From: Clostridia bacterium
Lineage (GTDB): Bacteria > Bacillota > Clostridia > Christensenellales > UBA1242
NCBI GenBank assembly: GCA_963930145.1
Contig: CAWVLM010000038.1
Location: forward strand, 1-54,836
Direction: 5' to 3'
DNA: 54,836 nt
Position 1 is the stretch's first letter. Every line of letters starts with the position of its first letter. The translations under genes and the position numbers were made by a program. Below the pieces are notes generated by a model, which saw only the letters and a list, made by a program, of their open reading frames with translations, did no database searches and was not told where the DNA came from. Positions 20,201 to 54,051 of the stretch are shown one piece after another.

Positions 20201-23200
20201 TATAGGCGAAGAAGCTGGCAGAACTCAGTATAACAACATACGTTTTCAGCTCAGCCAACAATATCTCAATGACAGCACGCTAACTGATGATATGATTGTT
20301 GACCTATTTGGACCTGACGGCATGCTTACATTATTTAATGAAACAGGCGTTATTTCAGGACTAGACGGCACTGCCGCGTCTATTAGGGCAGCACTAAGCG
20401 GACAGACAATCACAAAAGTTATGATAAATAAAGACTTTGCGGTAGACCATATTATAAGGTTCACCATTTCAGATACAGGAGAAAATGGTGCAATAAGTTC
20501 AACGTTAAGTTTAACGCTACTTTCAAATTTATCAATTTCATCTCAAAACTATCCAAATAATGGTGAAACTTTATATGCAAGTGCAGCTTTAGAACTAGAA
20601 AATACTGTTACGAATAATTATCTTAACTATAAGTCTGGGATTTACGATAATTCTTTTGCTTCACTCTATGATGACGGCGTGTCAATGTATTATATAGTAA
20701 GAAGTGGCAACAATTATATCTTGCAAGATACCATGCCTTCGTCTTATGTGGGAATATTCTATGCCCAAGAAACTAACGTAGGCGGAACATTCATTCCAGC
20801 AGGAACAATCATCTTCTCAGACTTTTGGAACGTTCCATCTCAGACATATTCAATAACATTTACACCAGATGGCGAGAATTACTTTACATTGAGCCGTACA
20901 TTAAGCTTTGTGGTAACTCGCGACCTTGCCATAACTGACCTTGAAAATGTTTACTATATAATGAACGATGGGGCAAACTATGGTATATCAAACTTTGTAA
21001 GTCTGCATAGAATGTCCACAGCAGGCAGCACAGCAGACACAGCCATAAACGGAATCGATGTGGAATATGTATTCTCTGATTATCTAGTTTATGAAAATAA
21101 CAATGTCACAAAGAGCGATGACGCATTCTTTGTATTTGATTATAACACAACTGAGCTTATCACAACCTTAACAATAAATTATCTAGTTCGTGGTGCAAAT
21201 GACATAATATTAAATAGAGTAGAGCTTGGCTCTGTTGAAATCAAAATAAAATTGTATTCTAATGGCGATGATTTTGACCTTTACGAGTATATTGCAAGCT
21301 TAATATCTTATGATTCAAACTACAGCATAAAGGCAGAAGTTCAAAATGTGGGTTCAACAGAATATATAATGCTTCAAGAAGGCACTTGGTTCTTAAATGA
21401 TGACTTTGCTATACTTGGAACAAACAGCTTCAACATCTATGGCAATTTAAGAACATATGCCACAGACGGCAACTCACAATCAACATCTAACTACTTAGGT
21501 GTAACTTATGATTCAACAGGGCACACTGTTATAGATGAAGAAGGCTTGGAAATAACACTAACAGGCACAAGACTTACAACAAGAAATTCAAGTGGCAGAC
21601 TGCTTCAAGGCCTTGATAGTGAAAAACTCTTCCTTGTTGTATACTTTGGTTCTGCAAATGAAAATTATGGCGAGAAGCCAGAATTTCCAGGTTCTATTGC
21701 GGTAATGTACGTGCCAATAGTAATATCATCAATTGGCTATGATTATGTAAATTATGAAAGCGAGCTTGAGGCTAGCAGCAATCTCGCAACCGCCATGACC
21801 GACCCTAATACTCTTATTGAAAATGGTATTTATGATATAGTAACAGCAGGGCAGGTAACACAAATTTTAAGCGAATATACATTCGGTGAAACTGTTGCAA
21901 ATGGCTTATATATGATTACAAATTCAAGTTTATCAGTAAATATCGAATATTATCCTATTGATACAACAGGTTCAGTTCAAACTAATTCTGAAATAGTCAA
22001 ACTTATTTCTATAGAGTCGCAGCAAGTTGGAAGCGGCGAATATGAAAGAGTGGGCAATCTATATCTTAACCACCTTACAAATTCAATTGATGATTTCTAC
22101 CTGGCATTAAGATACACAATTTCAAACTCGAGTGACAGCCGTGAATTTTTCTACGTGCTTAAAGTTATTCCAGATGTCATTGTAGAAGAATCTGTATATG
22201 GCTATAATGGCAATTCAGAATTCTTAGAAAGCGAAGTGAACAGCGAAAATATGGTTGAGCTTGACCATATATTTGGTGCAACCACGCTTAACGAAAATCA
22301 AAAAAGATTCAACATCACAAAAGTTCTTCCACTAGTTGAAGGGTATGCGATAGAAGAAGCTTATAAATATTTAACTATCACAAATGATTCTGAGCAAGTT
22401 ATATCCACTTTAGACGCAATTATACAGCGAGACATGACGATTTCAGTATCTCGCGTGGATGAAAACGATGATGTAACAGGCGACTTGCAGCTTATCACAA
22501 TCACAACACTAGAGCAAATAGTCGACCTAGCAGATTATTTTGAAGATATTGCAAGTGGCGATAGATTTGTAATTGAAATTATTGCAGGTGAAGGTGATTT
22601 ATTCTATAACGGGCAACAGATACAGGTTTCACACGACACCATCACAGACTTGCAAGTCGAGGTCACAGAAGAGATGCAAGTATGGTTTACATTATATAAT
22701 AGTGATAATCAACTTAAGGCAGATTCTCAATTTGTGACTATCACAAAAGATGAACAAACCATTGACCTAATAGAAGTTTTTGCTGAAGCCTTTGATGCAA
22801 TTGAAGATTTTGAAATTGCAACAGGAGACATTCTCACAATCAAGATAATTTCGGGTGAAGGCGATATAATATACAATGGCACAGAAATATTCTCAGATTT
22901 AAAAGAAGAGAACGCTGTTGAAAGTGTTATGGCTGGCGAAGACCTTTATTACACAGAAGAGACATGGTCAGATTATGTAAGAATTTATTTCTCTGAAGAC
23001 TACTCAAAAATGTACTACACGCCATACACAAGCGAGCAGCTTACAATAAACATCAGGCACAGTTATAAGGGTGGGGCACAAGATGATGAGCTAGCCGTTA
23101 TAGGTGGCGAGCAGTACTACACATTCATTCTCAACACAACCACGTATAACTATTCAGTAAGGTTTGCAGAAGATGGCAAATCTCCAGTGATAACAGATGA

Positions 23201-26200
23201 AAACAGCACAACCTACACATGGGAGGTCTCTAGAGAAGATATTTCAGACGCAAGAACGCTTTCTATGGATATAAGATTGCTAGAAGGCTATATTGCAGGT
23301 TCAGCACAGAGCTACACAGAGGTTTGGAATATTCTTGAGATATCTATGACGGGTGAACGAGCAGCAAATCAAGAGATAGGTATGGGCACAGAATCTGCCG
23401 TTGTATCTTTTGATTATGATAATTCTCAAGCAAATCAAGGTCAATTTAATATCACTTTTGCAGATTATATTTCAAGTGATAGACAAATAGAATTCACGCT
23501 CTATACAGAGCAGGGCTATCTTGCAACACTTATAATAAACATATCAGCAACTGCAAGTTATGAGATTATTGCAGGAAACAGCACTTTGCTTGGCGGAAAC
23601 TCATACCAATTTAATAATGTGTTTGCTATCAGTCTAAACGGCTCAGAAACACCACTTTCTGGCAGTGACTATATAGTCACCTTAGATTCAATCACAAGTT
23701 CGTCTAAGGATATAAATGGCTTTGATGGCACAGACTTTATCATATTTGATGAAAATGCAACATTTATAGTTGCAGACCTTATCAGAGACTATAATGTAAC
23801 GCTCAGCTTTATAGTTACATTTGCAGAAAGTGCAGGCTCAAGTTATGTCAACCAAGTATTCACATTCACAGCAACGTTAACTCTTGGTCGAAATGTTACC
23901 TATAAAACAAGTGCAAACGGCGGAGCTGTTCTTGCAGGCGAAGATTTAGAAATATACGAGAGCGGCATATTTAACACAAACCATAGTTATGAAAATACAG
24001 AAATCGTATATAATGGTTCATCTTCAAGTCCAGCCTTTGCGTCAATAGAAGGAACAACAATTCATACAAACTATATTGCAAGCGACACAAATGTTGATGT
24101 AAACATGATTGTCACATTATATTTTAATTATTCAAACGCTCACACTCTAACAAATGTGGCATACCAAACCTTTACAATAACCTATTCGTTCAACGCATAT
24201 AAGAGCGTAACGCTTGACGCTAAGTATCCTTCTCCTAATGGCGAAGCTCTCACAAGAGAATATCTAGATGATGGCACATCATTTACAAATATTCTAACAG
24301 GTTTCATTTTGCATAAGCCAGCCTTCAATCAAACCGAAGGTGGAGAGCCATTAAACAGAATTACAATCAAAAAAGGCAATAGAAAGGGCACGCAACTTGA
24401 ATACGAAGATATAATATCAAGTATAACAGACACAAACAACCTTTCAATTTCAATTATTGCCATGTCAAACGCAAGTGTCTATACCGATACTGTTAAAGTG
24501 AATGACGGTGCTGATGAAAATGATACAAACTATGTGGTAAGCAGCGAAATTGAATATAACAAAAACATCACCTTTAAACGTGGCACTTGGACATCCACAA
24601 AGACCGAAAATGGCACAAAAATATCTTTCAACGATAACGGGAATGACTCCTATGTAACATTTAGAATAACCTATCAAGAAGTGTCTTGTGACTATACAGT
24701 CTATATTCTTGCAAACTCTATAATTGCTCAAATAAACTATACAAGTGCAAACGTTGCAAGTGGCAATTATTCAGATGGCGATAGCTCAATACTAGTATCC
24801 TATGAAACTCTATATGTCGACAAAACTTCAACGACCGCTTTGTTCGGGCAAAACAGAATGGCAAGCGTTGTGTTTAGCAATGACCTTGCAGTCACAGGCT
24901 CATACTATATTGTATTTGCAGCTGAAAGCAACTATAGCACTGATAGCAGCACAAATTTCTATGCATCATATCCACAATATATAAGCTCAAGTAATGCAGG
25001 GCAGATAGCAAATATAGACCTTGGTTACAGCATGGCAAAGGACGGGAACGACTTTGTATATGTTGGCACCTATGAAGTTGCAGCTTTTGAGAGCAATATG
25101 CTTACAGTTGCCGAAAATGGTTTGATTGCGAAAGCAGGCTCAACACAAAACAATGCGGCAACGTGGGCAGATATCAATAAACTCACGAATAGTGATGCAA
25201 ATCAAAGAATATTCACAAGTTTAACTCTCACTCATAGAATAGAACTTGTCTATGGCGGCTCAAATGGCGTGCCTATTGCATATAGTTATTATGGCAATAT
25301 GCTTGCTAACTTTGAGTTTATCAAAGGCTCAACTATAAATTATAAACTTGACACAATAAACGGAATATCAGTATTCGGCTCGTCGTCTCTTAATAAAGAA
25401 GATGGCAGCACAAAAGCCGAAGTTATATTCTCCTTAAATTACTACTTTAAGCCAAGTATAGATATTGACGTAGATGAAAAGATATCAAGCCAGAATAACT
25501 ATATTGAACTTGAGGTAAACTATGAAATTCCAAGTATGGTAGAGCTCTTTGGCGTTCGTCACCCAACAACAGGAGAATATATCAATGAAGCCGATTTCGG
25601 AGCTGGTAAGGCTAATTTAAGTTTTGAAAGTGTAAATTATCAAGTAAATAATAAATTAAATACTGTTGATGAATCTTATCAAGATATCCTTGACGGGTAT
25701 ATCTCAACCTATAATTTTGCAGACGAAGGCTTTAGGATTCAAGCACAAGACGATGGTACAAATAAATATGTATATCTATTCTCATCAGCCATCCTAAACG
25801 CAGGGCAATATGCCTATGACTATATGCTGCTGCCACTTGGTGCAGATAATCAAGGTGACTTTGTTCTCACAAGACTTGCTTATACCGTTCCATTAGATGG
25901 GACAACACTGTCCTATGAAAAGGAATTTTATATCGTAGTTAAAGTCGTTCCAGATTATCAAATAACCTATGGTGGAAATGTTGTAGAAAATGACTTAAAT
26001 AGTGACGCAGTCACAAATCAAGGCAATCCATACAATATTGTAAGCCTTACAACAGATTCAAATACAAATATAACTCATTATAGTGAATTTACTTTAACAA
26101 GCTCCAGCACCGTAACAGATGGACATGTTTCTGTAAGACATACCAATGGTGATAACACCTCGGTAGAACTTGCAACTTCCAACTTCACGATAACAATGGC

Positions 26201-28226
26201 TGTTCCAGGCACAACAATAGAAGGTATTGAATATAATAATGCAACAAATATAAATCAAAAATTGCAGGCTGATTTAAATAGGGCTTGGGGAAAAAGTAAT
26301 AACACATACACATTGAAGGAGGGATTTAACACGACCTTCACATCAGCAAAAGAAGTAATTTTTGGGACTCAATATTACTACATTCAAGCGGTAGACCCAT
26401 ATGGTTTCACATATATTCTATATTTCAGCTTACAATCATCTTATTCAGAACCTGACATAAAAGCTGATACTATTTCGCTTACCGAACTTGGCTATATTGA
26501 CTTTGGTGCTCAATATGAGCTTATCAGTGTTCAAGAAGTGGTAAAAGATGATGAAACAGAATTCTATATCAATTCACAAACCTATCCACCTGAAACCACA
26601 GACGCATCAGTTCAACTTGTTGAAATCACAGGCATTGAGGCCTATCTGTTCAGTGCCGATCCAACAGGTATAGGCGGAATATCCCAAAAAGAGAAGGGTG
26701 GTGGTTATGAAATAACAAACACTGAAGATCAAAACAAATGGCCAAACTATAACGAAGACATCTCTTATTTTGAAGTTCCGATGCTAAACTATGTAACAGT
26801 TGACTCAATTATGTTCTATGATATGGACGATAATGCAATTATAAAAAATGCTATAGAGCCAACAAAAATAGGAACGGAAAGCGGCTATACTCTTGCTACA
26901 ACCACAAGTTCATCAGGCGAAGAAAGTGGCATGGCAATCTATAACGGTCTTGGCACAAATAACACAGGTCGTCTTCCTTATGAAAACCCAGGGGAAGATA
27001 AGAATAACCTAGTTGATGGGCAACAATATTTGCCATTCCAAGTTCCGCGTATCACAGATACAAGTTTATTTGAAGATAGCAACACCGCCCAAGCACAAAT
27101 GGTTGTTAGACTTAAATATAAAAAAGACACAACAATAGAATATTATGACTTAAAGGTTAATGTAACTATCACAAGAGAAGTCACGATCATGTCAAATGAA
27201 GGTGCTTCACCTGTCAGAGATGGTGTAGGCTTTAATTTGAGTGGCGAATTTGAAGTAACAAGCGGTGGGGACAAATTGGATAGTAAGAAAGTTACATACC
27301 TAAATGATACACTTGAAGTTCTTGTCAATGGCGGGCAATCAACATCGTTTGAGATGTATCTATATAGAGACGACAGTCTATATAATAATACTCCGGCAAT
27401 TGTTGATATATCTAACACAGGCAATAGTTGGGCGAGAACAGAGTATATTTCAATATCACAGTATTTAAGAACCAATGTACAACTTGGTGATGAAATACAA
27501 ATTGTTCCACGCGATCAAAATGCAACATTCTATTATGTATATAATAATGGTGCAAGTGCAACATACTATCAATATCAAGTATTTGCTAAAGCGGATGGTT
27601 CTCTTGCAATTAAACAGGCGGGCAGGCCAAATATAGAATGTAACATTCTAATAAGGGAAATAGCTCAAGATGTTATCTATGTTGAAAACGCATCACTACT
27701 TGAGGCTAGAAATTATTATAACGTAAGAAAATACTATATTGTCAGCGTAAACTTTGGCGGAAGCGGCAGTGCAACTCCATTTAACTATAGAGTTTCTAAA
27801 AATTATTATGTAACTGGAAGATATTTCATGCTGCAACGCAATTATACAGCCCAAGATATCATACCATCTATCAATTGCACAGAATATCAAGGTCAGCGTA
27901 TATCGCTTCTTGCCCAATGGTCAGGCACAGCTTATTTCAGTCTCCACTATGCTACTAGTGAGCTTCAGCCAGATACTACTAACACTATAGGGCTATCTTC
28001 AGCAGCTTCAGTATTAACCTTTACTCTTGATGCAACAGATGGTGCGTCTGGTAATGCTGAGGTTAGTGATAATGGAACGATTACATTCTATAATTCATTT
28101 ACTTATGATCAATATGTAAAGATTATCATTAGAATGAAAGTTTCGGGAGCTGATAGAGAAATCAGTGATGATGGCGGACTTGTCACGCTTGGCACGTTAA
28201 AACTTCGCTGGAAAGAAAAATTTTAA
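17292..28226 (+). CDS. Giant (3644 aa) N-terminally membrane-anchored surface protein, no recognisable domain
   Basis: Uninterrupted 10.9-kb ORF. K-rich cytoplasmic head (MKRRLKEKKAKKSSGKK) followed by one TM (WPLWLTFILVIAAVGAISGITVLGVYLAGG). The rest is T/S/N/Y/I/V/G-rich. No LPXTG-like C-terminus. Confidence 0.85.
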   Translation: MKRRLKEKKAKKSSGKKWPLWLTFILVIAAVGAISGITVLGVYLAGGFEERIINPEAIAFSYDESLYNESTGQLEVTDDFTLTITTPTDPVTETAVTLSFTSGLFHKFDGDDGVTYIDNEIIQVPEVVTLGQPFQVKLIRDNYLVDSEGKEILDEYNRSIDWIVGGISVLQARSEYNMISAVTLQIAVDVPVYMTETVAINSTTETTNQIVTGEAFHLDTIFYPAKSEYIYSDDANSNIDEENKRVKHAYYQAINVDASSLSTRYDGRYDVSFIAGDQAVDNITMMGYTFRDAATQIATENLYIDSTDELFYSQVLGYLFSSTNDVSSSLNIRIGAASVYNFTVSKAGSTVSMNADSTMRIYLNQYLYDQSAEFLGVNIYSTSGSIIENMLPNLALSFEYNGSDPTLDENAFLTVRGGESVVVDGVTYYKPYSNVSNYNYSYWDLLSSQNANITVSVVLLIENEDGSYSLFGEPSLIYNFTLSVERHAESAISWADSSDIDVMLNYNTDGSINPYTLNLDGLVSIPTDNIYQSYVFFAYFGEGEKDALVPTANTIIGSTGYNYDLTGYYSTDIDNLMLFAINGSTITLQNTGTFRLYYATIITENGVPVYEEDQSGNRTYQIAMMCNEYITVTCEKSLYQDSIRAGEIDVSAFPEVNGEIAINQGATQTISVTFRVMAESVSVFQEEYDNGYINLFVRSSQGADVSSYFSIVSREFSIDGTSGEGVLKYQVNVNTGISIDILNGIYISQFVLNYNDNDDTNIDWVIDAPAETNICIYSPVATNLEIAPEGAYDYNSFITGEETIYVNQSLNAGGNFSTTISLGNVELSSVTELLARLLGADNSYVTITDQKDRIDTLAGNWKFVVSNGSADAVNLNGQTFTFRQASGAEVTLALASTDGNATSLTNGQSITLNISSVGVTYADSTDSLDPFTNDDYTEETDISNIAVSKYGAKSNSATDTINLSTLVRFYIGEEAGRTQYNNIRFQLSQQYLNDSTLTDDMIVDLFGPDGMLTLFNETGVISGLDGTAASIRAALSGQTITKVMINKDFAVDHIIRFTISDTGENGAISSTLSLTLLSNLSISSQNYPNNGETLYASAALELENTVTNNYLNYKSGIYDNSFASLYDDGVSMYYIVRSGNNYILQDTMPSSYVGIFYAQETNVGGTFIPAGTIIFSDFWNVPSQTYSITFTPDGENYFTLSRTLSFVVTRDLAITDLENVYYIMNDGANYGISNFVSLHRMSTAGSTADTAINGIDVEYVFSDYLVYENNNVTKSDDAFFVFDYNTTELITTLTINYLVRGANDIILNRVELGSVEIKIKLYSNGDDFDLYEYIASLISYDSNYSIKAEVQNVGSTEYIMLQEGTWFLNDDFAILGTNSFNIYGNLRTYATDGNSQSTSNYLGVTYDSTGHTVIDEEGLEITLTGTRLTTRNSSGRLLQGLDSEKLFLVVYFGSANENYGEKPEFPGSIAVMYVPIVISSIGYDYVNYESELEASSNLATAMTDPNTLIENGIYDIVTAGQVTQILSEYTFGETVANGLYMITNSSLSVNIEYYPIDTTGSVQTNSEIVKLISIESQQVGSGEYERVGNLYLNHLTNSIDDFYLALRYTISNSSDSREFFYVLKVIPDVIVEESVYGYNGNSEFLESEVNSENMVELDHIFGATTLNENQKRFNITKVLPLVEGYAIEEAYKYLTITNDSEQVISTLDAIIQRDMTISVSRVDENDDVTGDLQLITITTLEQIVDLADYFEDIASGDRFVIEIIAGEGDLFYNGQQIQVSHDTITDLQVEVTEEMQVWFTLYNSDNQLKADSQFVTITKDEQTIDLIEVFAEAFDAIEDFEIATGDILTIKIISGEGDIIYNGTEIFSDLKEENAVESVMAGEDLYYTEETWSDYVRIYFSEDYSKMYYTPYTSEQLTINIRHSYKGGAQDDELAVIGGEQYYTFILNTTTYNYSVRFAEDGKSPVITDENSTTYTWEVSREDISDARTLSMDIRLLEGYIAGSAQSYTEVWNILEISMTGERAANQEIGMGTESAVVSFDYDNSQANQGQFNITFADYISSDRQIEFTLYTEQGYLATLIINISATASYEIIAGNSTLLGGNSYQFNNVFAISLNGSETPLSGSDYIVTLDSITSSSKDINGFDGTDFIIFDENATFIVADLIRDYNVTLSFIVTFAESAGSSYVNQVFTFTATLTLGRNVTYKTSANGGAVLAGEDLEIYESGIFNTNHSYENTEIVYNGSSSSPAFASIEGTTIHTNYIASDTNVDVNMIVTLYFNYSNAHTLTNVAYQTFTITYSFNAYKSVTLDAKYPSPNGEALTREYLDDGTSFTNILTGFILHKPAFNQTEGGEPLNRITIKKGNRKGTQLEYEDIISSITDTNNLSISIIAMSNASVYTDTVKVNDGADENDTNYVVSSEIEYNKNITFKRGTWTSTKTENGTKISFNDNGNDSYVTFRITYQEVSCDYTVYILANSIIAQINYTSANVASGNYSDGDSSILVSYETLYVDKTSTTALFGQNRMASVVFSNDLAVTGSYYIVFAAESNYSTDSSTNFYASYPQYISSSNAGQIANIDLGYSMAKDGNDFVYVGTYEVAAFESNMLTVAENGLIAKAGSTQNNAATWADINKLTNSDANQRIFTSLTLTHRIELVYGGSNGVPIAYSYYGNMLANFEFIKGSTINYKLDTINGISVFGSSSLNKEDGSTKAEVIFSLNYYFKPSIDIDVDEKISSQNNYIELEVNYEIPSMVELFGVRHPTTGEYINEADFGAGKANLSFESVNYQVNNKLNTVDESYQDILDGYISTYNFADEGFRIQAQDDGTNKYVYLFSSAILNAGQYAYDYMLLPLGADNQGDFVLTRLAYTVPLDGTTLSYEKEFYIVVKVVPDYQITYGGNVVENDLNSDAVTNQGNPYNIVSLTTDSNTNITHYSEFTLTSSSTVTDGHVSVRHTNGDNTSVELATSNFTITMAVPGTTIEGIEYNNATNINQKLQADLNRAWGKSNNTYTLKEGFNTTFTSAKEVIFGTQYYYIQAVDPYGFTYILYFSLQSSYSEPDIKADTISLTELGYIDFGAQYELISVQEVVKDDETEFYINSQTYPPETTDASVQLVEITGIEAYLFSADPTGIGGISQKEKGGGYEITNTEDQNKWPNYNEDISYFEVPMLNYVTVDSIMFYDMDDNAIIKNAIEPTKIGTESGYTLATTTSSSGEESGMAIYNGLGTNNTGRLPYENPGEDKNNLVDGQQYLPFQVPRITDTSLFEDSNTAQAQMVVRLKYKKDTTIEYYDLKVNVTITREVTIMSNEGASPVRDGVGFNLSGEFEVTSGGDKLDSKKVTYLNDTLEVLVNGGQSTSFEMYLYRDDSLYNNTPAIVDISNTGNSWARTEYISISQYLRTNVQLGDEIQIVPRDQNATFYYVYNNGASATYYQYQVFAKADGSLAIKQAGRPNIECNILIREIAQDVIYVENASLLEARNYYNVRKYYIVSVNFGGSGSATPFNYRVSKNYYVTGRYFMLQRNYTAQDIIPSINCTEYQGQRISLLAQWSGTAYFSLHYATSELQPDTTNTIGLSSAASVLTFTLDATDGASGNAEVSDNGTITFYNSFTYDQYVKIIIRMKVSGADREISDDGGLVTLGTLKLRWKEKF

Positions 28227-35649: not shown

Positions 35650-36015
35650 ATGGCAAAAATTAAGTCAAAAAAACAAAATATCGGTATTTTTGCAATAATT
35701 TTTTTGCTCGTGCTTGGTGGTGTTGCTGGGGTTTTTACAGCAAAACATATAACTCGCAACGATGTTTTTGAGATAATTGGCGAGCAAACCATCACCTTAA
35801 GCGTGGGTGAAACTTATCAAGATGAAGGTGCAAAAGCGGTATCTTTTGGCAAGGACATCTCGTCAAAGATAGTCAGTGAAAATAATATTGATTATTTAGC
35901 TGTTGGCACCTATTATATAAGATACACCGTTGATGATATAAGATATCGCGGCATAGAGCGGTATAGGGTTATTATTATTGAAGCGTCAAGCGAGGTGAGC
36001 GATGAAGGTGTTTAA
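35650..36015 (+). CDS. Membrane-anchored protein with a bacterial Ig-like (DUF5011-type) domain
   Basis: N-terminal TM, then ITLSVGETYQDEGAKAV...DYLAVGTYYIRYTV, which is typical of Ig-like DUF5011 domains. AAAGGAG RBS. Confidence 0.65.
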   Translation: MAKIKSKKQNIGIFAIIFLLVLGGVAGVFTAKHITRNDVFEIIGEQTITLSVGETYQDEGAKAVSFGKDISSKIVSENNIDYLAVGTYYIRYTVDDIRYRGIERYRVIIIEASSEVSDEGV

Positions 36016-37132
36016 GTGGCTTGGCGGGTTTTTTCTTGCCTTAATAATTCTTGCAATAGGGTTTGCAGCTGGCTTTGCGATTGATATTTTTATTATTGAC
36101 AAACCGAAAACAGAAACCTTTATAAGCGGTGATTTATCAATACACTTTTTGCAACTTGGAAATAAATACACAGGCGACAGCGTTTATATTAAGTGTGGCG
36201 AAAATGACATATTGATAGATGCAGGCTCTCGCAATGACTCTTCATCCACAATTATAGACTATGTTGACGAGTATGTCACCGATAACACTCTTGAATATGT
36301 GATTGCAACGCATGGGCATGAAGACCATATTGCGGCATTCTATAGCGAGGCAGACAGAACAGGAATATTTGACTACTATCAAGTTGAAAATATAATTGAT
36401 TTTCCACTTACAAACAGCAGTGCAACATCAAGAACTGTTGTAGGTAAATACTATGCTGCTCGTGACAAAGAAATCGCGGAAGGAGCAAATCACTGGACTG
36501 CACTTGAGTGCTATAACAACGAAAATGGTGCAAGCAGGGTGATACAGCTTTCTAGTGATGTCGAACTTGAGATTTTATATAATTATTATTATGACCACAC
36601 TCAATCATCAGGCGAAAATGACTATTCAGTGTGTGTTATGATAAATCAAGGCGACAACCATTATCTTTTCACTGGCGACCTTGAAAAGCGGGGAGAAGAA
36701 AGGCTTGTTGAATATTATGCAGAAAACCACGGCGGACTTCCACATTGCGTATTGTATAAAGCAGGGCATCACGGCTCAAAAACTTCAAGTTGCCCTTTAC
36801 TTATGGAGACAATCACGCCTGAATATGTTTGCGTATGCTGCTGTGCGGGAACAAGCGAATATACCGACAATCCAGAAAATCAATTTCCAACGCAGGAGTT
36901 TATCGATAATGTTGCTCCATACACAGACAACGTCTACGTCACATCAATGGTAGATAATTATGTCGATAAAGCTGATTTTTCAGCACTTGGCACGGTAAAA
37001 CCCATGAATGGCAATATAGTTTTCACCGTTTCAGGCAATACCATAACAATAGAATTTAGCGATAGCGACCTAAAACTGAAAGATAGCGATTGGTTTAAAA
37101 ATAACCGAACTTGTCCATCAACTTGGCAATAA
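36002..37132 (+). CDS. Membrane-anchored MBL-fold hydrolase (ComEC C-terminal-domain-like)
   Basis: HGHEDH metal motif, downstream GHHGS, N-terminal TM. Overlaps the previous gene by 14 nt. Confidence 0.75.
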   Translation: MKVFKWLGGFFLALIILAIGFAAGFAIDIFIIDKPKTETFISGDLSIHFLQLGNKYTGDSVYIKCGENDILIDAGSRNDSSSTIIDYVDEYVTDNTLEYVIATHGHEDHIAAFYSEADRTGIFDYYQVENIIDFPLTNSSATSRTVVGKYYAARDKEIAEGANHWTALECYNNENGASRVIQLSSDVELEILYNYYYDHTQSSGENDYSVCVMINQGDNHYLFTGDLEKRGEERLVEYYAENHGGLPHCVLYKAGHHGSKTSSCPLLMETITPEYVCVCCCAGTSEYTDNPENQFPTQEFIDNVAPYTDNVYVTSMVDNYVDKADFSALGTVKPMNGNIVFTVSGNTITIEFSDSDLKLKDSDWFKNNRTCPSTWQ

Positions 37133-37173
37133 AATTTTAATACAATTTCTCCAAACTTTAATTGTTTTTAAAG

Positions 37174-37210
37174 ATTGTTAATTAAAAATTCATTAACAAT
37201 TTTTTTTTTA
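37174..37210 (+). terminator. Intrinsic terminator of the MBL hydrolase operon
   Basis: ATTGTTAAT-TAAAAATTC-ATTAACAAT, a 9-bp stem followed by T9. Confidence 0.75.
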
Positions 37211-37318
37211 TATTTCAATGTGTTTAGCGTTGTTCTTTTAAGTTAATTTAGAATTTGTAAGGTTTATATGAAATATTTGCAAGTGAATCACAATGGCTAA
37301 ATTTGTATGCATACTATA

Positions 37319-37414
37319 CACGCGAATGGGAGAGCTTTTTGTAAACCAAAAAGCTCTCCAAAAGGCACAAAAGTGCCTTTTACAAACTCTCGCGAGAGTT
37401 TGTTCATTCGCGTG
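37319..37414. other. Four-way-junction 'cloverleaf' module A (96 nt)
   Basis: A 10-bp outer stem encloses three contiguous hairpins of 12, 9 and 11 bp. Pairings were verified base by base (see findings). Confidence 0.7.
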
Positions 37415-37490
37415 CAAATTTTTATAAATAACTACTATATAATATTCATTAAAAAAATTTAAAAATTTTTAAAAAAATTGTTAAATTTGC

Positions 37491-37518
37491 TTGACACGCG
37501 TTGCGGGGGGGGTAAACT
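37491..37518 (+). promoter_or_regulatory. Promoter with a G8 tract in the spacer
   Basis: TTGACA (37491-37496), 16-nt spacer CGCGTTGCGGGGGGGG, TAAACT (37513-37518). Confidence 0.5.
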
Positions 37519-37524
37519 AATAGC

Positions 37525-38035
37525 ATAAAGATAGTCGCCGTATGGCGACTATCGCGAGCGGCGAGCCAAATGCTCGGCGGCCGATAGGTTGAGTTAGAAA
37601 AATAAAACCTTTTCCGCTCTTTTGAAACAGACAAAATTAGATGTTATGTATGTACTATACGATAGAAAGTGGCTAAGCCACCAAACATCTAGTTTTCCGC
37701 GAGTGTGAGAAGGCACGTGTTGTTTTGCATTTTGCAGAACAACACAGAAGGCAAAAACTTTTGCCTTTAAAAAACATATAGTTTTTTGTGCCTTCTCATG
37801 CTTGAAGCTCGCTCGAAAATGTTGGCTACCTAGTTGTTAAGCACTTAAAAAGTGTGACATTTGTCACAGTTGAAAATTTTTTTAAAAATCTTTAATTTTG
37901 TGACGTCATCGTGCCGTCACCCTTGAGACAAAGGGGTTACGAAAGTGCTAGAATATGACTAAGATATGCAAAAAAGGTCGAATTTTGCATAAAACTATAG
38001 CGTTTAAACAAAATAAAGAAAAATCTAAAATTTAA
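37525..38035 (+). ncRNA. Candidate large structured RNA or highly structured 5' leader of the DUF6273-like gene
   Basis: About 510 nt with no credible ORF, packed with perfect hairpins and multi-branch junctions, and richer in GC than other intergenic DNA here. Strand is inferred from the promoter only. Confidence 0.4.
37706..37798. other. Four-way-junction 'cloverleaf' module B (93 nt)
   Basis: 11-bp outer stem TGAGAAGGCAC/GTGCCTTCTCA enclosing hairpins of 12, 8-9 and 7 bp. Confidence 0.7.
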
Positions 38036-38049
38036 AAGGAAGGTAAAAA

Positions 38050-39408
38050 ATGAGTCTTAAAATCAAACTTATGTCAGCAATTTCAGCATTTATCTTAGTG
38101 CTAAGCATGCTGCTCGTTGGAGTTTTGGCAGCAACGCAAACGATTAACCTTAAAGGAACAGTAAACTTTAATGTTTCAGATTCAACGTTATATCTAAAAG
38201 ATATGCGTATTCAAACTGAGAGTACAGGGCAAGATAGCACAGCTGATAATTTTATGCCAGGCTTTATTAGTGGAGAAATAGATATAAATTTAGGCACAAT
38301 TTCTTCATCAAGTGGCTCAGTCAATATATACTTTGACTTTGTAAATACCACTTCAACAATGTATCAAGCTTCGCCAACAGGCGGCAGCGGAGTAACCTTA
38401 TCAACAAGTGGAATGATAGCGGGCTCTCAAGTTGCAATTGGAGACGTTACAACAGCAGATATCTCAGGCACAATAATTTTAACAATACAATTCACTGGCT
38501 CAAGCAGCGTTGATTTAGATGGAATATCAATCTCGTTTAATGAATATTCGCCATACGAGAGAGTAGATGCAGATGACAATCCAGATCCAAATGGAGATTA
38601 TCTATACTTTGGATATTACCCGCAAACAATAAAGACAGCAGATGTTACAGTTGGCTCAGCTCCAGAATCAAATGGCTATTATTTAGGTAGTGACGGAGAA
38701 TATTATGCAAAAGTCTCAGCAAACCCTTTTGACAGTAATTATACCTTTTCAGATGGCACTACAATAGTTTCAGGCACAGAATATTATTTTAAAGTTGAAC
38801 CTTTAAGATGGCGTATTTTAGATGATGCCTATGGTGATGGAACAGCACTTATTGTATGTGATTCAATAATAAATGCAATGTCATTCCAATCACAAGTTAA
38901 GAATAATGAAGATGATGGATATAACTACGTCATAGATGATTCAGGTGAATATATATTAGATAAAGATGGAAATAAAGTTTACGCAAATAACTATGAGTAT
39001 AGCGAAATTAGAGCGTATTTAAACAATGATTTCTATAACAGTGCGTTTAGTAATGGAGAACAAACAATCATTGTTACAACCGAAGTTGATAATAGTTTAG
39101 AATCAGCTGGCGTTATGAGTGATCAAAAATACATTTGCAATAACACTTATGATAAAGCATTTTTATTGAGCTATGCAGACATTGAAAATTATGGGTTGCA
39201 TCCCCAACTCTCAGGAACATTTGATTTTATAACAAGTGATTATAGTCGTGCTTCAGGCATAATTATGGAAGTGAGATACCAACCATTAGGCGTAGGGCGT
39301 TCATACACACGTTCACCTTTTGGTTATGAATACGGAGGAAATTATGGATTAGATGTGATTTCCGTATCAGGGGGGCTACTGGGAATTCTTCAGCAAATTC
39401 CAACTTAA
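38050..39408 (+). CDS. Secreted DUF6273-like protein (W-L-R-S-P type module), C-terminus probably frameshifted at a G6 tract
   Basis: AAGGAAGG RBS. Signal peptide MSLKIKLMSAISAFILVLSMLLVGVLAA. LRWRILD ... YTRSP module. The expected family tail is in the adjacent frame (see finding). Confidence 0.8.
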   Translation: MSLKIKLMSAISAFILVLSMLLVGVLAATQTINLKGTVNFNVSDSTLYLKDMRIQTESTGQDSTADNFMPGFISGEIDINLGTISSSSGSVNIYFDFVNTTSTMYQASPTGGSGVTLSTSGMIAGSQVAIGDVTTADISGTIILTIQFTGSSSVDLDGISISFNEYSPYERVDADDNPDPNGDYLYFGYYPQTIKTADVTVGSAPESNGYYLGSDGEYYAKVSANPFDSNYTFSDGTTIVSGTEYYFKVEPLRWRILDDAYGDGTALIVCDSIINAMSFQSQVKNNEDDGYNYVIDDSGEYILDKDGNKVYANNYEYSEIRAYLNNDFYNSAFSNGEQTIIVTTEVDNSLESAGVMSDQKYICNNTYDKAFLLSYADIENYGLHPQLSGTFDFITSDYSRASGIIMEVRYQPLGVGRSYTRSPFGYEYGGNYGLDVISVSGGLLGILQQIPT

Positions 39409-42773: not shown

Positions 42774-42895
42774 TGGTGCGTCGCAAGGGGTCGACGCGTT
42801 AAGAAAACTTGGCGGTGTCCAAGTTTTTAGCAAAAGACGGGTGAAATTAACTTTCACCCCGCCGGAACGGGCGAACCTTGGTTCGAATCCCTTAA
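42774..42895 (-). other. Unassigned ~120-nt structured element ending in a tRNA-Arg-derived acceptor mini-helix + ACCA
   Basis: Minus strand carries hairpins CGAACC/GGTTCG, GGGTGAAA/TTTCACCC and AAAACTTGG/CCAAGTTTT, then GCGTCG-ACCCCTTG-CGACGC-ACCA. It lies between tRNA-Arg and the terminator. Confidence 0.45.
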
Positions 42896-42920
42896 AAAAG
42901 ATTACAAGACGTAGTCATGG

Positions 42921-42997
42921 TGGTGCGTCGCAAGGGATTCGAACCCCTGACCTTTCGTTCCGTAGACGAACGCTCTATCCAGCTGAGCTAGCGACGC
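42921..42997 (-). tRNA. tRNA-Arg (anticodon ACG), CCA encoded
   Basis: Reverse complement GCGTCGC-TA-GCTC-AGCTGGATA-GAGC-G-TTCGT-CTACGGA-ACGAA-AGGTC-AGGGG-TTCGAAT-CCCTT-GCGACGC-A-CCA folds as a canonical cloverleaf. Confidence 0.95.
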
Positions 42998-50717: not shown

Positions 50718-50813
50718 TTAAAAAATCCAACAAGACAATAAATTATGCAAAGTTTGTATTTACTTTAGCGAAAAAGTGTTGTATAATATAAAAAATTAAA
50801 TTTGGGTGGTTAT

Positions 50814-52814
50814 ATGAAATTTATGAAAATAAAAGAAAAAGAAATTTCCACAAATAATTTTATTTTACCATTTTTATTTATAGTTTTTGCTATAATTTTT
50901 GAAATGGTCAATTTTTTATATATTGGTTTTAAAGATGTTGATGGCAACTTGATGGTTTTGCCAACATATTTTTTATTTGATTTTGCCATAATTTTAATGC
51001 TTGCAGGGCTAATTTATGTTGTGCATAACAAAATAATCATGCAAATATTATACTATTTTTTGTTATTTGTGCAATGTGCTTTAAATATAGCAAATTCTAC
51101 GATGTATTATATCTTTGGTGATATCTTATCTTTTGACCTATTCTATTTAGGCGGCGAAGCAACGTCAGCTATCACTGTAGATGTCATCGATTGGGGTGGA
51201 GTATTCCTAAATTTTGGTATTTTTGCTCTAATAGTTGCAATTTCAGTGGTGCTAGTAAAGAAAAATAAAAAGACCGTTACCATCAAAAATTTTTCTATGC
51301 CGTGCATAGTTCTCTCAGTGGCAATTTTATGTTGGTCTATGGGTTTAGGCTTATATGAAACACAGGCAATCACCCTTGCCGATGCACAGGCAGGGCAATC
51401 AGAAATAGAAAGCAGTGATAAATATCTATGGGACAATTTCCAATTCAAGCTTGACGCCTTTGAAAAGTTTGGACATTATGGGTTTTACACAAAAAGCGTG
51501 CTAAATCTTATATTCCATGACGAAGTAACAGAAAATGATATAGAATACTATCAAAATTTTATAGATGAAGGCTATCACGAAGAAGACCCAACCGCACCAC
51601 TATATGGCGACAACTTAATTATAATCTTATGTGAAAGTATGGACTGGTTTGCAATAGACCCATACAACACTCCAACGCTATATTCTATTGCAACTGGCAA
51701 CAATTCAATATCTTTCACAGGTTTTCATGCAAGAAATAGAACTAATAACAGTGAAGGTATTGTTCTAAACGGCTCAACACCTAGAAATATGTCAGTTTCA
51801 GCTGCCTATGATAACGGTTACACCTTTGACTATGCACTTCCTAAGCTATTTAAGTCTACAAGTCACGGCGAAGATGTTGTTGCAATTTACACCCATCAAA
51901 ACAGCAGCAGCTTCTATAATAGAAACGTCACGCACACACTGGGATTTGGCTTTGATGAAATGTATATGAATGAAGCATATACAGGTGAGCAGTCAATAGG
52001 TGCTTGGGGTGAGTGGATGAGCGACCTTGATTTTACTAAAAATGTGATAGACGATATTTTGCCGACAAATCAAAGATTTTTGACCTTTTTCACATCTTTA
52101 GCATCACATGGGCCTTATACATACAGAAATCCGTACTACGAAGAGTATTATCAAATTCTTGATGAAAATTATGAAAAATACATGGAATGGTATCAGACTG
52201 AAACAGATTATGTTATGCCAACAGGCAATGACTTTGAACATTTGTATTATTATAAAGCAGCCTTTATCGACCTTGACCGCACTGTTGCAAATATGATTGA
52301 AGAACTTGAAAAACGCGGACTTAGTGAAAATACATCGATTTTATTCTTTGCCGACCATAATGCCTATTATCACGATTTGAGTTTGAAGCTTAAAGGCATA
52401 GACAAAGCAGATTTTTATGATACCTATGCATATAACATTCCGCTTATGCTTTATAGTCCAAAACTAACAAAAGAGAGCGGCGGACAGATTATTGATACGT
52501 TCTGTAATACCTACGACGTTCTGCCTACTATTTGTGACCTATTTGGTCTTCCATACAACTCAAATCTTATTTATGGCTATTCTATTTTCTCAGAAGAAAT
52601 AGAAAATTCCTTCTTTGTCTCACACTTAAATGGAATGTTTAATGAAGATATCTATAGTTTAAATATAAGCGATATCTATATCGTAGGCGAAGATGTCACG
52701 GATGAAGATATTAAAAAATTTAAGCGTAATGCAAATAGATTCTATAAACGCCAAGCTGAACTTGAAATTATCTACGAAAATGGCATAAATGGAACAAGAA
52801 AACTTGTTTCTTGA
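50814..52814 (+). CDS. LtaS-family (sulfatase-fold) lipoteichoic acid synthase / phosphoglycerol transferase
   Basis: Five N-terminal TM helices followed by an extracellular alkaline-phosphatase-superfamily domain (LCESMDW, FFADHN). TATAAT at 50782-50787. TGA stop. Confidence 0.8.
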   Translation: MKFMKIKEKEISTNNFILPFLFIVFAIIFEMVNFLYIGFKDVDGNLMVLPTYFLFDFAIILMLAGLIYVVHNKIIMQILYYFLLFVQCALNIANSTMYYIFGDILSFDLFYLGGEATSAITVDVIDWGGVFLNFGIFALIVAISVVLVKKNKKTVTIKNFSMPCIVLSVAILCWSMGLGLYETQAITLADAQAGQSEIESSDKYLWDNFQFKLDAFEKFGHYGFYTKSVLNLIFHDEVTENDIEYYQNFIDEGYHEEDPTAPLYGDNLIIILCESMDWFAIDPYNTPTLYSIATGNNSISFTGFHARNRTNNSEGIVLNGSTPRNMSVSAAYDNGYTFDYALPKLFKSTSHGEDVVAIYTHQNSSSFYNRNVTHTLGFGFDEMYMNEAYTGEQSIGAWGEWMSDLDFTKNVIDDILPTNQRFLTFFTSLASHGPYTYRNPYYEEYYQILDENYEKYMEWYQTETDYVMPTGNDFEHLYYYKAAFIDLDRTVANMIEELEKRGLSENTSILFFADHNAYYHDLSLKLKGIDKADFYDTYAYNIPLMLYSPKLTKESGGQIIDTFCNTYDVLPTICDLFGLPYNSNLIYGYSIFSEEIENSFFVSHLNGMFNEDIYSLNISDIYIVGEDVTDEDIKKFKRNANRFYKRQAELEIIYENGINGTRKLVS

Positions 52815-52873: not shown

Positions 52874-52974
52874 ATGTCTAGCAGCGTACGTCTTTTGCAA
52901 TGCAAAAGCCGTCAAAACGCTTTTCAAGCGTTTTTGCAAGCATAGCCATGCTTGCCGCTGCTAGACATTTTTTA
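52874..52974. other. Four-way-junction 'cloverleaf' module C (95 nt) plus a T run; may also serve as the terminator after the LtaS-family gene
   Basis: 13-bp outer stem ATGTCTAGCAGCG/CGCTGCTAGACAT enclosing three hairpins of 7-11, 9 and 8 bp, followed by TTTTT. Confidence 0.7.
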
Positions 52975-53019
52975 TAAGCCAATTTTAACACAATATAGCT
53001 TTTAAGAATATAAAATGTT

Positions 53020-54051
53020 ATGTTCTCAAAAATATATATAAACAGCACAAATTTAATTCACAATGTTGAAAAACTTGAAGAAATTGCTGCACACAAGATA
53101 TGCGTGATGATAAAGGCAAATGCCTATGGGCATGGCATGAAAGAAATTCTCTCTATTTTAAATGATAAGGTTGACTATTTTGGCGTGTCAAACCAAAGTG
53201 AAGGCCTGCTTGCGAAGAGATATACAAAGAAGGATGTAATAGTGTTCGGTGCCTGCGAAGATTATCGGGTTTGCATGCAAAATGATGTTTCTTTTGCACT
53301 TTTTTCATATTTAGACGCAAAAAAGATAGCAAAAACAGCAAAAAAATACAACTTAACACCCAAAATGCATCTTTGTTTAAACACTGGCATGAATAGGTAT
53401 GGTGTTAAAACCGAGAAAGAGCTTCAAAAGATAATCACTTTTTTAAAAAAGCAGGGCTTGTCTCTTGCAGGAATCTATACTCATTTCTCTTCACTAACAA
53501 CTGATAGAGACTATACTGAAAAACAAAAAGAAAAGTTTTTTAGATTTATAAAACATATTCCTAAGGAGTGGCAAACGATAAAGCATGTTGGCGGCGGGCG
53601 AAGCATCTTTGAAAAACTTGATGTTGATATGTTTAGAGTAGGGCTTGAAGTGTATGGCTATGGCAACGAGTTTGTCAAGCCTGTCCTTTCAGTTGAAAGC
53701 ACGATAGTTGATATTCAGCAGGTAGATAAAGGCGAACATGTCGGCTATCTCTGTGGTTATACCGCAGAAAAAGATATCACCGTTGCAGCCATTCCGCTAG
53801 GCTATGGTGATGGGCTGCCACGGAAACTTTCAAATAAGCTAATAGTATCAATAAGGGGAAAAGAAGCAAAGGTAACAGGCAATATCTGCATGGACGCCTT
53901 TATGGTAGATGTCTCTGATAATAATTGCAAGATAGGCGATAGCGTTATGATAATGAATAATGCGTCCGCTCTTGCTCCGCTTATTGAAAGCACAGAATAC
54001 GAGGTTCTCACAAATCTAGCTAAGTTTAGGGGAGAGCGAGTTATAGTTTAA
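53020..54051 (+). CDS. alr: Alanine racemase
   Basis: VMIKANAYGHG (PLP lysine), IPLGYGDG, and NICMD near the C-terminus. Confidence 0.9.
   Translation: MFSKIYINSTNLIHNVEKLEEIAAHKICVMIKANAYGHGMKEILSILNDKVDYFGVSNQSEGLLAKRYTKKDVIVFGACEDYRVCMQNDVSFALFSYLDAKKIAKTAKKYNLTPKMHLCLNTGMNRYGVKTEKELQKIITFLKKQGLSLAGIYTHFSSLTTDRDYTEKQKEKFFRFIKHIPKEWQTIKHVGGGRSIFEKLDVDMFRVGLEVYGYGNEFVKPVLSVESTIVDIQQVDKGEHVGYLCGYTAEKDITVAAIPLGYGDGLPRKLSNKLIVSIRGKEAKVTGNICMDAFMVDVSDNNCKIGDSVMIMNNASALAPLIESTEYEVLTNLAKFRGERVIV

Follow-up and report, generated by a model that had tools for sequence, protein, structure and literature searches.

Transcript-end and extragenic palindromic elements are an already known kind of sequence. 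The REP and BIME elements of Enterobacteria and Pseudomonas are extragenic palindromes located at gene 3' ends or within operons, never in promoters; they are thought to stabilise the upstream mRNA and have DNA-level partners too. Integron attC sites (57-141 nt) are recognised by their folded structure, are unrelated in sequence between cassettes and have, in some cases, a branched centre. In the AAV ITR T-shape and the telomere foldbacks of Streptomyces, an outer palindrome surrounds small ones, the pairing is Watson-Crick and recognition is by shape. Among terminators, tandem or 'cluster hairpin' arrangements have been divided into the U-, V- and X-shaped classes of WebGeSTer (Gupta and Pal 2021, PMC8355165); no closing stem is described in that paper, in which the word 'junction' occurs 0 times.

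Here, we describe intergenic modules in which three abutting hairpins (H1 to H3) are enclosed by an outer stem, forming a closed four-way junction. They were found in the window, i.e. the whole stretch of 54,836 nucleotides analysed, and in loci of its relatives. The modules occupy the same genomic niche as REP and BIME elements. REPs, however, are high-copy families spread by RAYT transposases, and a REP unit is a single imperfect hairpin or a pair, whereas each module is unique, forms a closed four-way junction and is seen without any RAYT. With attC sites the modules share the principle of structure, not sequence; the R/L boxes, extrahelical bases, one-strand DNA action, cassette array and integrase of attC were not seen at the modules. 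The AAV ITR and the Streptomyces foldbacks terminate linear replicons and have two inner arms and specific protein-binding motifs, whereas the modules are internal, have three arms and share no motif. A tRNA likewise has a four-way junction, an acceptor-like closing stem and three arms, but the modules lack D, anticodon and T-loop features as well as the unpaired junction bases, and their arms comprise 6-15 instead of 4-5 bp.

Like intrinsic and cluster-hairpin terminators, the modules consist of stable, mostly perfect hairpins just past stop codons, in which the sequence drifts while the pairing stays; modules C, E and G end in a T-run, and several hairpins grouped at gene ends have themselves been described before. 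Unlike cluster terminators, they always have three hairpins, spaced 0-2 nt apart, inside a closing stem of 9-17 bp, and a U-tract therefore follows a multibranch junction, not a simple hairpin. Half of the families have no T-run, and three families lie past an ordinary terminator. It is the closed three-hairpin layout that differs from the known kind, and we found no description of closed three-hairpin intergenic elements in the searchable literature or Rfam; we think it unlikely that the modules are something further from known systems. We tentatively read them as transcribed RNA punctuation (probability of about 45%), that is, as branched terminators where a U-tract is present and as 3'-end or intercistronic stabilisers or processing sites elsewhere.

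Three modules in the window and their fold

The window is chromosomal DNA of an uncultured Clostridia bacterium from gut metagenomes, with ~35% G+C and the standard code. It contains three modules:

37319..37414, + strand: module A; outer stem 37319-37328/37405-37414, H1 37329-37359, H2 37360-37381, H3 37382-37403
37700..37804, + strand: module B (core 37706-37798); outer stem of up to 17 pairs including G-U, possible on the + strand only; no T-run after it
52874..52968, + strand: module C; outer stem of 13 bp, H1 of 3+7 bp with a T/C mismatch, H2 of 9 bp, H3 of 8 bp

The stems which a first-pass annotation had quoted are all present in the window sequence at the positions it gave. For module A, the RNA fold of the + strand is identical as MFE and centroid structure: an outer stem of 10 bp encloses hairpins of 13, 9 and 9 bp, the helices are separated by 0-1 nt, and 82 of the 96 nt are paired (about 80 in that annotation). 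H1, originally described as 12 bp with the loop GTAAACC, does form a hairpin, but of different size: in the MFE structure, it comprises 13 bp and a loop of 5 nt. The fold has an energy of -56.5 kcal/mol (z -11.6), which none of 200 shuffles reached. The + strands of B (-49.1 kcal/mol, z -10.1) and C (-49.0 kcal/mol, z -8.6) show the same topology. The core of B had been delimited correctly at 37706-37798, while its outer stem extends beyond these limits to 37700-37804.

With either RNA or DNA parameters, all three modules have an outer stem of 10-13 bp around exactly three abutting hairpins; DNA parameters left the structures unchanged (z -9.9 to -12.6), and the minus strands adopt mirror images of these folds at similar energy. 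In module A, all 41 pairs are Watson-Crick and no wobble is available to orient the strand, which was set solely by the orientation of the flanking genes. Scanning the whole 54.8-kb window for closed multibranch folds returned only A, B and C at dG/nt <= -0.52, with the next best fold at -0.31, and dinucleotide shuffles of the whole window (n = 8) reached best values between -0.30 and -0.38. The four-way junction proposed at first is the fold obtained for A, B and C under both parameter sets, and none of the eight shuffled windows contains a comparable branched fold.

Surroundings of the modules

Modules A and B share a 917-nt spacer, which is flanked by the gene for an MBL-fold protein (36002-37132) that resembles the ComEC nuclease domain and by a gene for a DUF6273 surface protein (38050-39408). 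The genes flanking module C are a sulfatase-family gene (50802-52814) and alr (53020-54051). The spacers contain the following further features:

37174..37210, + strand: canonical intrinsic terminator of the MBL-fold (ComEC-like) gene, hairpin and T10, 109 nt 5' of A
37415..37425, + strand: weak, displaced T-run after A, CAAATTTTTAT; T5 begins 4 nt past the stem and is poorer than that of C
37466..39300, + strand: exchanged block comprising the promoter-like site, the structured leader that contains B, and the DUF6273 gene; 96-100% identical to L113 bar one 100-nt stretch at 87%
37491..37518, + strand: promoter-like TTGACA-16-TAAACT, located between A and B; its spacer contains a G8 run (37505-37512)
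52968..52973, + strand: T6 run at C, composed of the last stem base 52968 and T5 at 52969-52973; T6 is kept in the L120 and L121 orthologs

The distance of 109 nt between the terminator and A is practically the 110 nt noted in the first reading. Given the promoter-like site between A and B, module B is probably situated within a long leader and A upstream of the start; the leader around B is highly structured (z -14.6). The genes flanking the block 37466-39300 are ~85% identical to L113, compared to the much higher identity of the block itself, and A is found 52 nt left of the block boundary. Module B is part of a gene cassette that was exchanged recently. A and B do not belong together as a pair: that they form the two ends of one element was ruled out, as L113 has B without A and B moves with the DUF6273 cassette. 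In L110, which has A, the presence of B cannot be judged because the contig stops at the poly-G run before the position of B, and it is this run (37505-37512), not the module, which accounts for the contig breaks near A.

A metagenome scan for relatives returned one close relative only, and the first modules seen in relatives all adjoined the MBL-fold gene. A functional tie to this gene was ruled out, since alr-centred loci carry modules at unrelated sites (C, D and E); the apparent link is thus a sampling effect combined with positional orthology.

Same shape without shared sequence

Modules A, B and C have no common sequence beyond an 11-nt chance match. For the search by structure, we used a covariance model of A alone with its structure supplied and with filters off. 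In the window, this model recovered B with 45.3 bits (E 5e-9) and C with 39.3 bits (E 1.5e-7), both at full length, and the best further match reached 12 bits (E 0.87). Applied to 179 kb of relatives' DNA, where a covariance-model search had been suggested by the first-pass annotation, the same model found 11 more modules, all at E < 0.01 and identical to the set of the energy scan, and nothing else below E 0.01. The initial impression that the layout is the same while the sequence is free is thereby borne out and extended to 14 modules in 10 families. No similarity was detected between modules at non-orthologous sites, either within or between genomes, across the window and ~1.9 Mb of related loci (< ~3% of any one genome).

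Occurrence across the clade

Our survey sample comprised ~1.9 Mb of related loci (L numbers), amounting to less than ~3% of any one genome. Together with the window, it contains 14 distinct modules which belong to 10 sequence-unrelated families:

Family A: window, L110, L111 (identical copy in L110 and L111)
Family B: window, L113, L114
Family C: window, L119, L120, L121
Family D: L121, L123
Family E: L125
Family F: L001, L081
Family G: L002 and ten population contigs
Families H and I: L004, L128; I also L131
Family J: L015, L019, L028

Module length ranges between 83 and 116 nt, with outer stems of 9-17 bp and arms of 6-15 bp, and the number of arms is always three. Module-bearing lineages have a density of ~1 module per 15-20 kb, while ~0.9 Mb of more distant relatives contained no modules. 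An RNALfold scan added no modules to this set. The element is a clade-wide feature of one uncultured gut Clostridia lineage and no local oddity.

Within 275 kb of module-bearing lineages, every run of three abutting perfect hairpins is closed by an outer stem, and no closed modules with two or four strong hairpins were found. The outer stems of the closed triplets comprise at least 9 perfect bp, except for C in L120 (mismatch), and the number of unpaired junction nucleotides is 0-2, except for module I (3 and 2). This strict architecture of three hairpins plus closing stem, together with the nearly fully paired junction, would be in line with a dedicated protein, such as an RNase specific for double strands or for junctions, or a scaffold or decoy partner, which binds or cleaves the perfect four-way RNA junction; the modules would then represent a structured-RNA class defined by shape only. 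Recognition of shape over sequence would also fit family D, in which one hairpin has been swapped as a whole between L121 and L123 while the rest is conserved. However, the modules lie next to unrelated genes for housekeeping and surface proteins, with no candidate partner gene linked to them, they offer no conserved loops or unpaired nucleotides to read, and their arms vary between 6 and 15 bp, so that we regard a protein partner of this kind as rather unlikely.

With respect to position, all 14 modules are intergenic and located on the coding strand of the preceding gene, and none (0/14) lies between divergent genes. They follow the stop codon at a distance of 8-190 nt, with the exception of B (~570 nt, in the leader). 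Modules A, F and G are found 70-115 nt past an ordinary terminator. Module D ends ~20 nt and J ~70 nt before the next start codon and, being this close, neither can be a full terminator there. Module E is followed by T8 and module G by CTTTATTTTTT.

Conservation, gain and loss of the modules

Module C is orthologous in three species with alr proteins of 82-87% identity; the neutral intergenic DNA of the compared species is no longer alignable. Compared with the window, its orthologs in L119 (identical), L120 (1966-2054) and L121 (9834-9926) reveal compensatory changes and sense-strand G-U pairs. In the outer stem, ATGTCTAGCAGCG/CGCTGCTAGACAT of the window is replaced by AGGTCTAGCAGCC/GGTTGCTAGACCT in L121, which amounts to two double changes (T-A to G-C and G-C to C-G) and one change from G-C to G-U, and H2 reads CGCTT/AAGCG in the window versus CGCA/TGCG in L121. 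Family D shows a T-A to C-G change in the outer stem between L121 and L123, where one hairpin was wholly replaced by an unrelated one and the other helices are nearly identical. Between L019 and L028, family J differs by T-A to C-G in the outer stem and A-T to G-C in H1. The compensatory changes at orthologous spacers, which the first-pass annotation had named as a check, are thus present in C, D and J, with 2-3 species for each orthologous family. All double changes quoted here were read straight off the sequences; an anchored pair count yielded 11-17 double changes per species pair, but this number is an overstatement inflated by register shifts, as the MAFFT alignments are out of register in some hairpins.

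The B ortholog in L113 (8286-8380) differs by one A/G change in a stem (U-A vs U-G), one loop change and one change in the flank. In L004, H1 of module H contains a bulge and H2 of module I an A-C mismatch; other strains are perfectly paired at both places, indicating selection for pairing. Module G has the same sequence in 11 population contigs, which were assembled independently, and this invariance rules out a hypervariable or diversity-generating site. An assembly artefact was likewise ruled out, because A, C and G recur in independent assemblies.

The modules are also absent from a number of orthologous positions. Module A is absent from L112-L118, including the very close strain L112 and the next-closest lineage L113-L118, and one of these strains without A encodes an MBL protein of 98.4% identity. 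Module C is missing in L123-L125, its absence coinciding with an alr identity of <= 77% and a spacer of merely 35-92 nt, and the position of J is empty in most relatives. Incomplete forms were found in L132 and L133, which have the 5' arm, H1 and H2 of module I without H3 or the closing arm, the break being located between H2 and H3. The 5' arm of module I in L004 is part of a tandem-repeat unit which is also found without a partner. In L014 and L025, tRNA-Ile is followed by an inverted copy of its anticodon arm, which encloses two unrelated perfect hairpins. At module H, a 9-nt direct repeat of the 5' arm flanks a 140-nt indel, and a 77-nt indel lies 20 nt before A.

As far as their origin is concerned, and whatever their function, two of these arrangements, the incomplete module I of L132 and L133 and the tRNA-Ile copy in L014 and L025, show that a closing arm can be an inverted copy of sequence that already existed upstream. 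The modules as a whole might be mutational by-products, created or perfected by inverted copying of nearby sequence through replication template switching and either largely neutral or useful only in a secondary way. This would account for the inverted upstream copies at module I (L004, L132, L133) and of the tRNA-Ile anticodon arm (L014, L025), and the scarcity of G-U pairs fits arm-to-arm copying as well. A random process, however, would not be expected to produce a fixed number of three hairpins. Module G is, moreover, invariant within a population, and modules are retained at orthologous sites even between species in which neutral intergenic DNA can no longer be aligned; we therefore consider a mere by-product quite improbable.

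Comparison with known RNAs and mobile elements

None of the modules was assigned to a family of Rfam 15, either at the gathering threshold or in E-value mode, and the best overlapping score was 18.7 bits against a threshold of 55.8. For 37100-38100, Rfam in E-value mode returned noise only. The sole tRNA detected in the window by ARAGORN and Rfam is a tRNA-Arg at 42921-42997. tRNA, tmRNA and every Rfam family were thereby ruled out, and the statements of the first-pass annotation that the element is neither a tRNA (no match of ARAGORN or the Rfam tRNA model to the modules) nor SAM-I or another known riboswitch (no Rfam score near threshold) hold. A BLAST search of 37250-37900 against 50,697 phage and 72,556 plasmid records was without a match, ruling out a phage or plasmid origin with respect to these records. 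The outer stems lack the R''/L''-L'/R' boxes and the GTTRRRY motif of integron attC sites, and no integrase adjoins the modules.

Presence and absence among close relatives (A missing in L112-L118, C in L123-L125 and J mostly empty) would be expected for miniature mobile elements of the MITE or REP type, with the outer stem, which does resemble one, as terminal inverted repeat and with further copies outside a sample covering < ~3% of any one genome. In this sample, however, no second copies were found and none of the 10 families has similar modules at non-orthologous sites; the flanks show no consistent target-site duplication. The annotated genes around the modules include no RAYT (Y1 HUH) transposase, and no other transposase gene was found nearby. 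Long orthologous conservation with covariation is, furthermore, unlike decaying MITEs, which makes a mobile element highly improbable. As for REP and BIME elements, no sequence family is repeated in the window and ~1.9 Mb of loci (< ~3% of any genome), whereas the position, extragenic and 3' of a co-oriented gene in 14/14 modules, corresponds to theirs.

Strand signals: RNA or DNA

Pairs which are wobbles on one strand only can indicate the strand on which the fold is maintained. On the gene-sense strand only, we found three such wobbles in C of L121, two in C of L120, one in H1 of B, where L113 has U-A instead of the U-G of the window, and 2-3 in the extended outer stem of B. Wobbles restricted to the opposite strand comprise an A-C in module I, which is polymorphic, and perhaps two more where helices of J meet in L028, resulting in a balance of ~9 versus 1-3 wobble pairs. 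In addition, module C is directly followed by T6 in three species, without an A-run on its 5' side, and a conserved promoter-like sequence for alr is located downstream of the T-run; C thus stands where a terminator would be expected.

Among all internal pairs, only 4/463 are G-U, and both strands fold about equally well. The near-absence of G-U is unusual for an RNA selected on one strand only. The G-U frequency of 0.9% in modules versus 8% in terminators is not a usable comparison, since the terminator set includes chance hairpins from coding regions and clear intergenic terminators are perfect too.

Almost pure Watson-Crick pairing, with both strands alike and also under DNA parameters, would rather be anticipated if the modules acted at the DNA level. 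A single strand could form the cloverleaf in the lagging-strand template or in transformation or conjugation intermediates, or negative supercoiling could drive extrusion of a branched cruciform, in either case providing a site for recombination, replication, topology or a junction protein. The location of A, F and G, in spacers past canonical terminators and 5' of the next promoter-like site, is compatible with such a role, as are the breakpoints at modules, i.e. the 140-nt indel at H, the breaks within I in L132 and L133, and the cassette edge and 77-nt indel 52 nt and 20 nt from A. Palindromes, though, are recombination-prone whatever their function, so breakpoints are no proof of a DNA role. 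Moreover, in families B and C, wobbles that can pair only in RNA or on one strand cluster on the gene-sense strand, module C has kept its T-run on one side with no A-run upstream, and extruding a 95-bp branched cruciform from duplex DNA is known to be energetically costly. Overall, we see a DNA-level role, including the Holliday-junction-like one put forward in the first-pass annotation, as a real but minor possibility.

Modules as putative RNA punctuation

Under the preferred reading as transcribed RNA punctuation, each module would be read out as part of the transcript of the upstream gene. The three inner hairpins would form in turn as RNA polymerase advances, thereby bringing both sides of the outer stem into contact. 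In modules with a U-tract behind the stem (C, E and G, less clearly A and D), closure of the outer stem could act like the hairpin of an intrinsic terminator, yielding a branched terminator. Where it is lacking, as in the intercistronic or leader modules B, F, I and J, the compact, fully paired junction may serve as an exonuclease barrier or processing site; such a barrier would set the stability of mRNA segments, similar to REP elements in enterobacterial operons. What the sequences demonstrate is the fold, its recurrence, its maintenance through compensatory changes, its location 3' of genes and the T-run at C, while transcription through the modules, termination and stabilisation are what we infer.

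Measured against known intrinsic terminators, the modules do not present a simple hairpin, as the 'loop' of the outer stem is a three-hairpin multibranch of 65-95 nt. A U-tract is found at C (T6, in three species), E and G, is weak at A (T5 after 4 nt) and D, and is absent at B, F, I and J. The 'branched terminator', one of three functions among which the first-pass annotation made no choice, gains support for C, with its T-run in three species, and for three modules of relatives. For A, this reading is weak, owing to the location past a canonical terminator and a T-run starting 4 nt beyond the stem, and it fails for B, which has no T-run and lies inside a long conserved leader. Since A, F and G are situated beyond an ordinary terminator, little transcription is expected to reach them. 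The terminator or stabiliser idea also leaves the strict three-hairpin design and its closing stem without explanation, and neither the near-perfect Watson-Crick pairing nor the rearrangement breakpoints at modules are accounted for by RNA punctuation, which keeps a role in DNA or a specific junction-binding factor under consideration.

A bolder view would be that each genome contains of the order of a hundred sequence-unique perfect four-way junctions, kept by a trans-acting reader of junction shape in RNA or in single-stranded or extruded DNA, and possibly coupled to the building of arms by inverted copying of upstream sequence; we hold this to be unlikely.

Implications

If the modules are branched terminators or stabilisers, signals at transcript ends can be multibranch junctions. 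As terminator predictors seek single or tandem hairpins, such signals would be missed or mis-scored in common gut bacteria. The class represents a clean natural case of selection for shape, in RNA or DNA, with free sequence and a fixed closing stem plus three arms. Should a junction-specific reader exist, it would form a new pair of cis element and trans factor and provide compact, orthogonal and sequence-programmable parts. Finally, the indels and cassette edges clustered at modules bear on palindrome-driven genome rearrangement in these organisms.

Sequence variation in the DUF6273 leader and gene

The DUF6273 surface-protein gene and its leader comprise the following features:

37466-~39300, block containing the promoter-like site, the structured leader including the four-way-junction module B, and the DUF6273 gene
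37491-37518, promoter-like TTGACA/TAAACT with a 16-nt spacer, upstream of the DUF6273 gene
37505-37512, run of eight G within this spacer

The block was 96-100% identical to L113, a locus from a relative, with a single stretch of 100 nt dropping to 87%. Identity in the genes flanking the block on either side was lower, at about 85%. Judged from this identity profile, the block resembles a recently exchanged surface-protein cassette. A different allele (73% identity) is found in the related locus L001, and the DUF6273 gene is entirely absent from the species represented by L002.

Across the strains L112-L117, both the G-run and the spacer vary in length, with about 7 to 9 G in the alignment as inspected by eye. 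The G-run is also the end point of many metagenome contigs. Based on this length variation and on the contig ends, we consider the TTGACA/TAAACT site with its G-run a candidate phase-variable promoter.

Besides module B, the same leader contains two strong local folds, at 37503-37618 (116 nt, -47.9 kcal/mol) and 37633-37697 (65 nt, -18.6 kcal/mol), and a scan against Rfam returned no match for either. Both folds may belong to a leader RNA or small RNA that has not been described before.

Strain differences around modules H and I

Modules H and I, two sequence families of the junction, were compared within one species (L004 11125-11520 and L128-L133). One difference between the strains is an A/C-rich indel of 140 nt. 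The 9-nt direct repeat at its borders (GCAACTCTT) constitutes module H's 5' arm. Before module I, a degenerate repeat of 31-45 nt (TTTGTTTTTAAC...GAGG...AGAAGA) is present in two or four copies depending on the strain, and in L132 and L133 two parts of module I, its hairpin H3 and its closing arm, have been lost or are absent. Module I is followed downstream by a fragment from the 3' part of a gene for an LRR surface protein.

The alr start region and a long open reading frame

In the start region at 52975-53022, no Shine-Dalgarno sequence precedes alr, and its ATG lies a few bases past a promoter-like AACATAAAA...TAAGAATAT(A) motif, which is conserved and common to the related loci L120, L121 and L123. 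The alr mRNA may be leaderless.

A single open reading frame of 3644 aa occupies 17292-28226; its orthologs in relatives span 3555-3745 aa, and none of them has a Pfam hit on record.

tRNA-associated repeats

Partial copies of tRNA genes were found in the window and in two related species:

42921-42997, minus strand, tRNA-Arg(ACG)
42880-42893, inverted copy of its T-arm
42775-42790, 16-nt direct repeat of its 3' end
L014 2682-2815 and L025 7254-7399, inverted copy of the tRNA-Ile(GAU) anticodon arm, downstream of the tRNA and its terminator

At the tRNA-Arg site, the relatives L102 and L103 carry a REP_ORF2-G2P rolling-circle replication gene, and L121 a phage-type integrase. The repeat arrangement at 42775-42997 resembles a scar left by an element that had integrated into tRNA-Arg(ACG). 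The loop of the tRNA-Ile inverted copy holds two perfect hairpins, unlike in sequence between the L014 and L025 species, and in both the tRNA is predicted to be able to form a closed, module-like junction with its downstream inverted copy.
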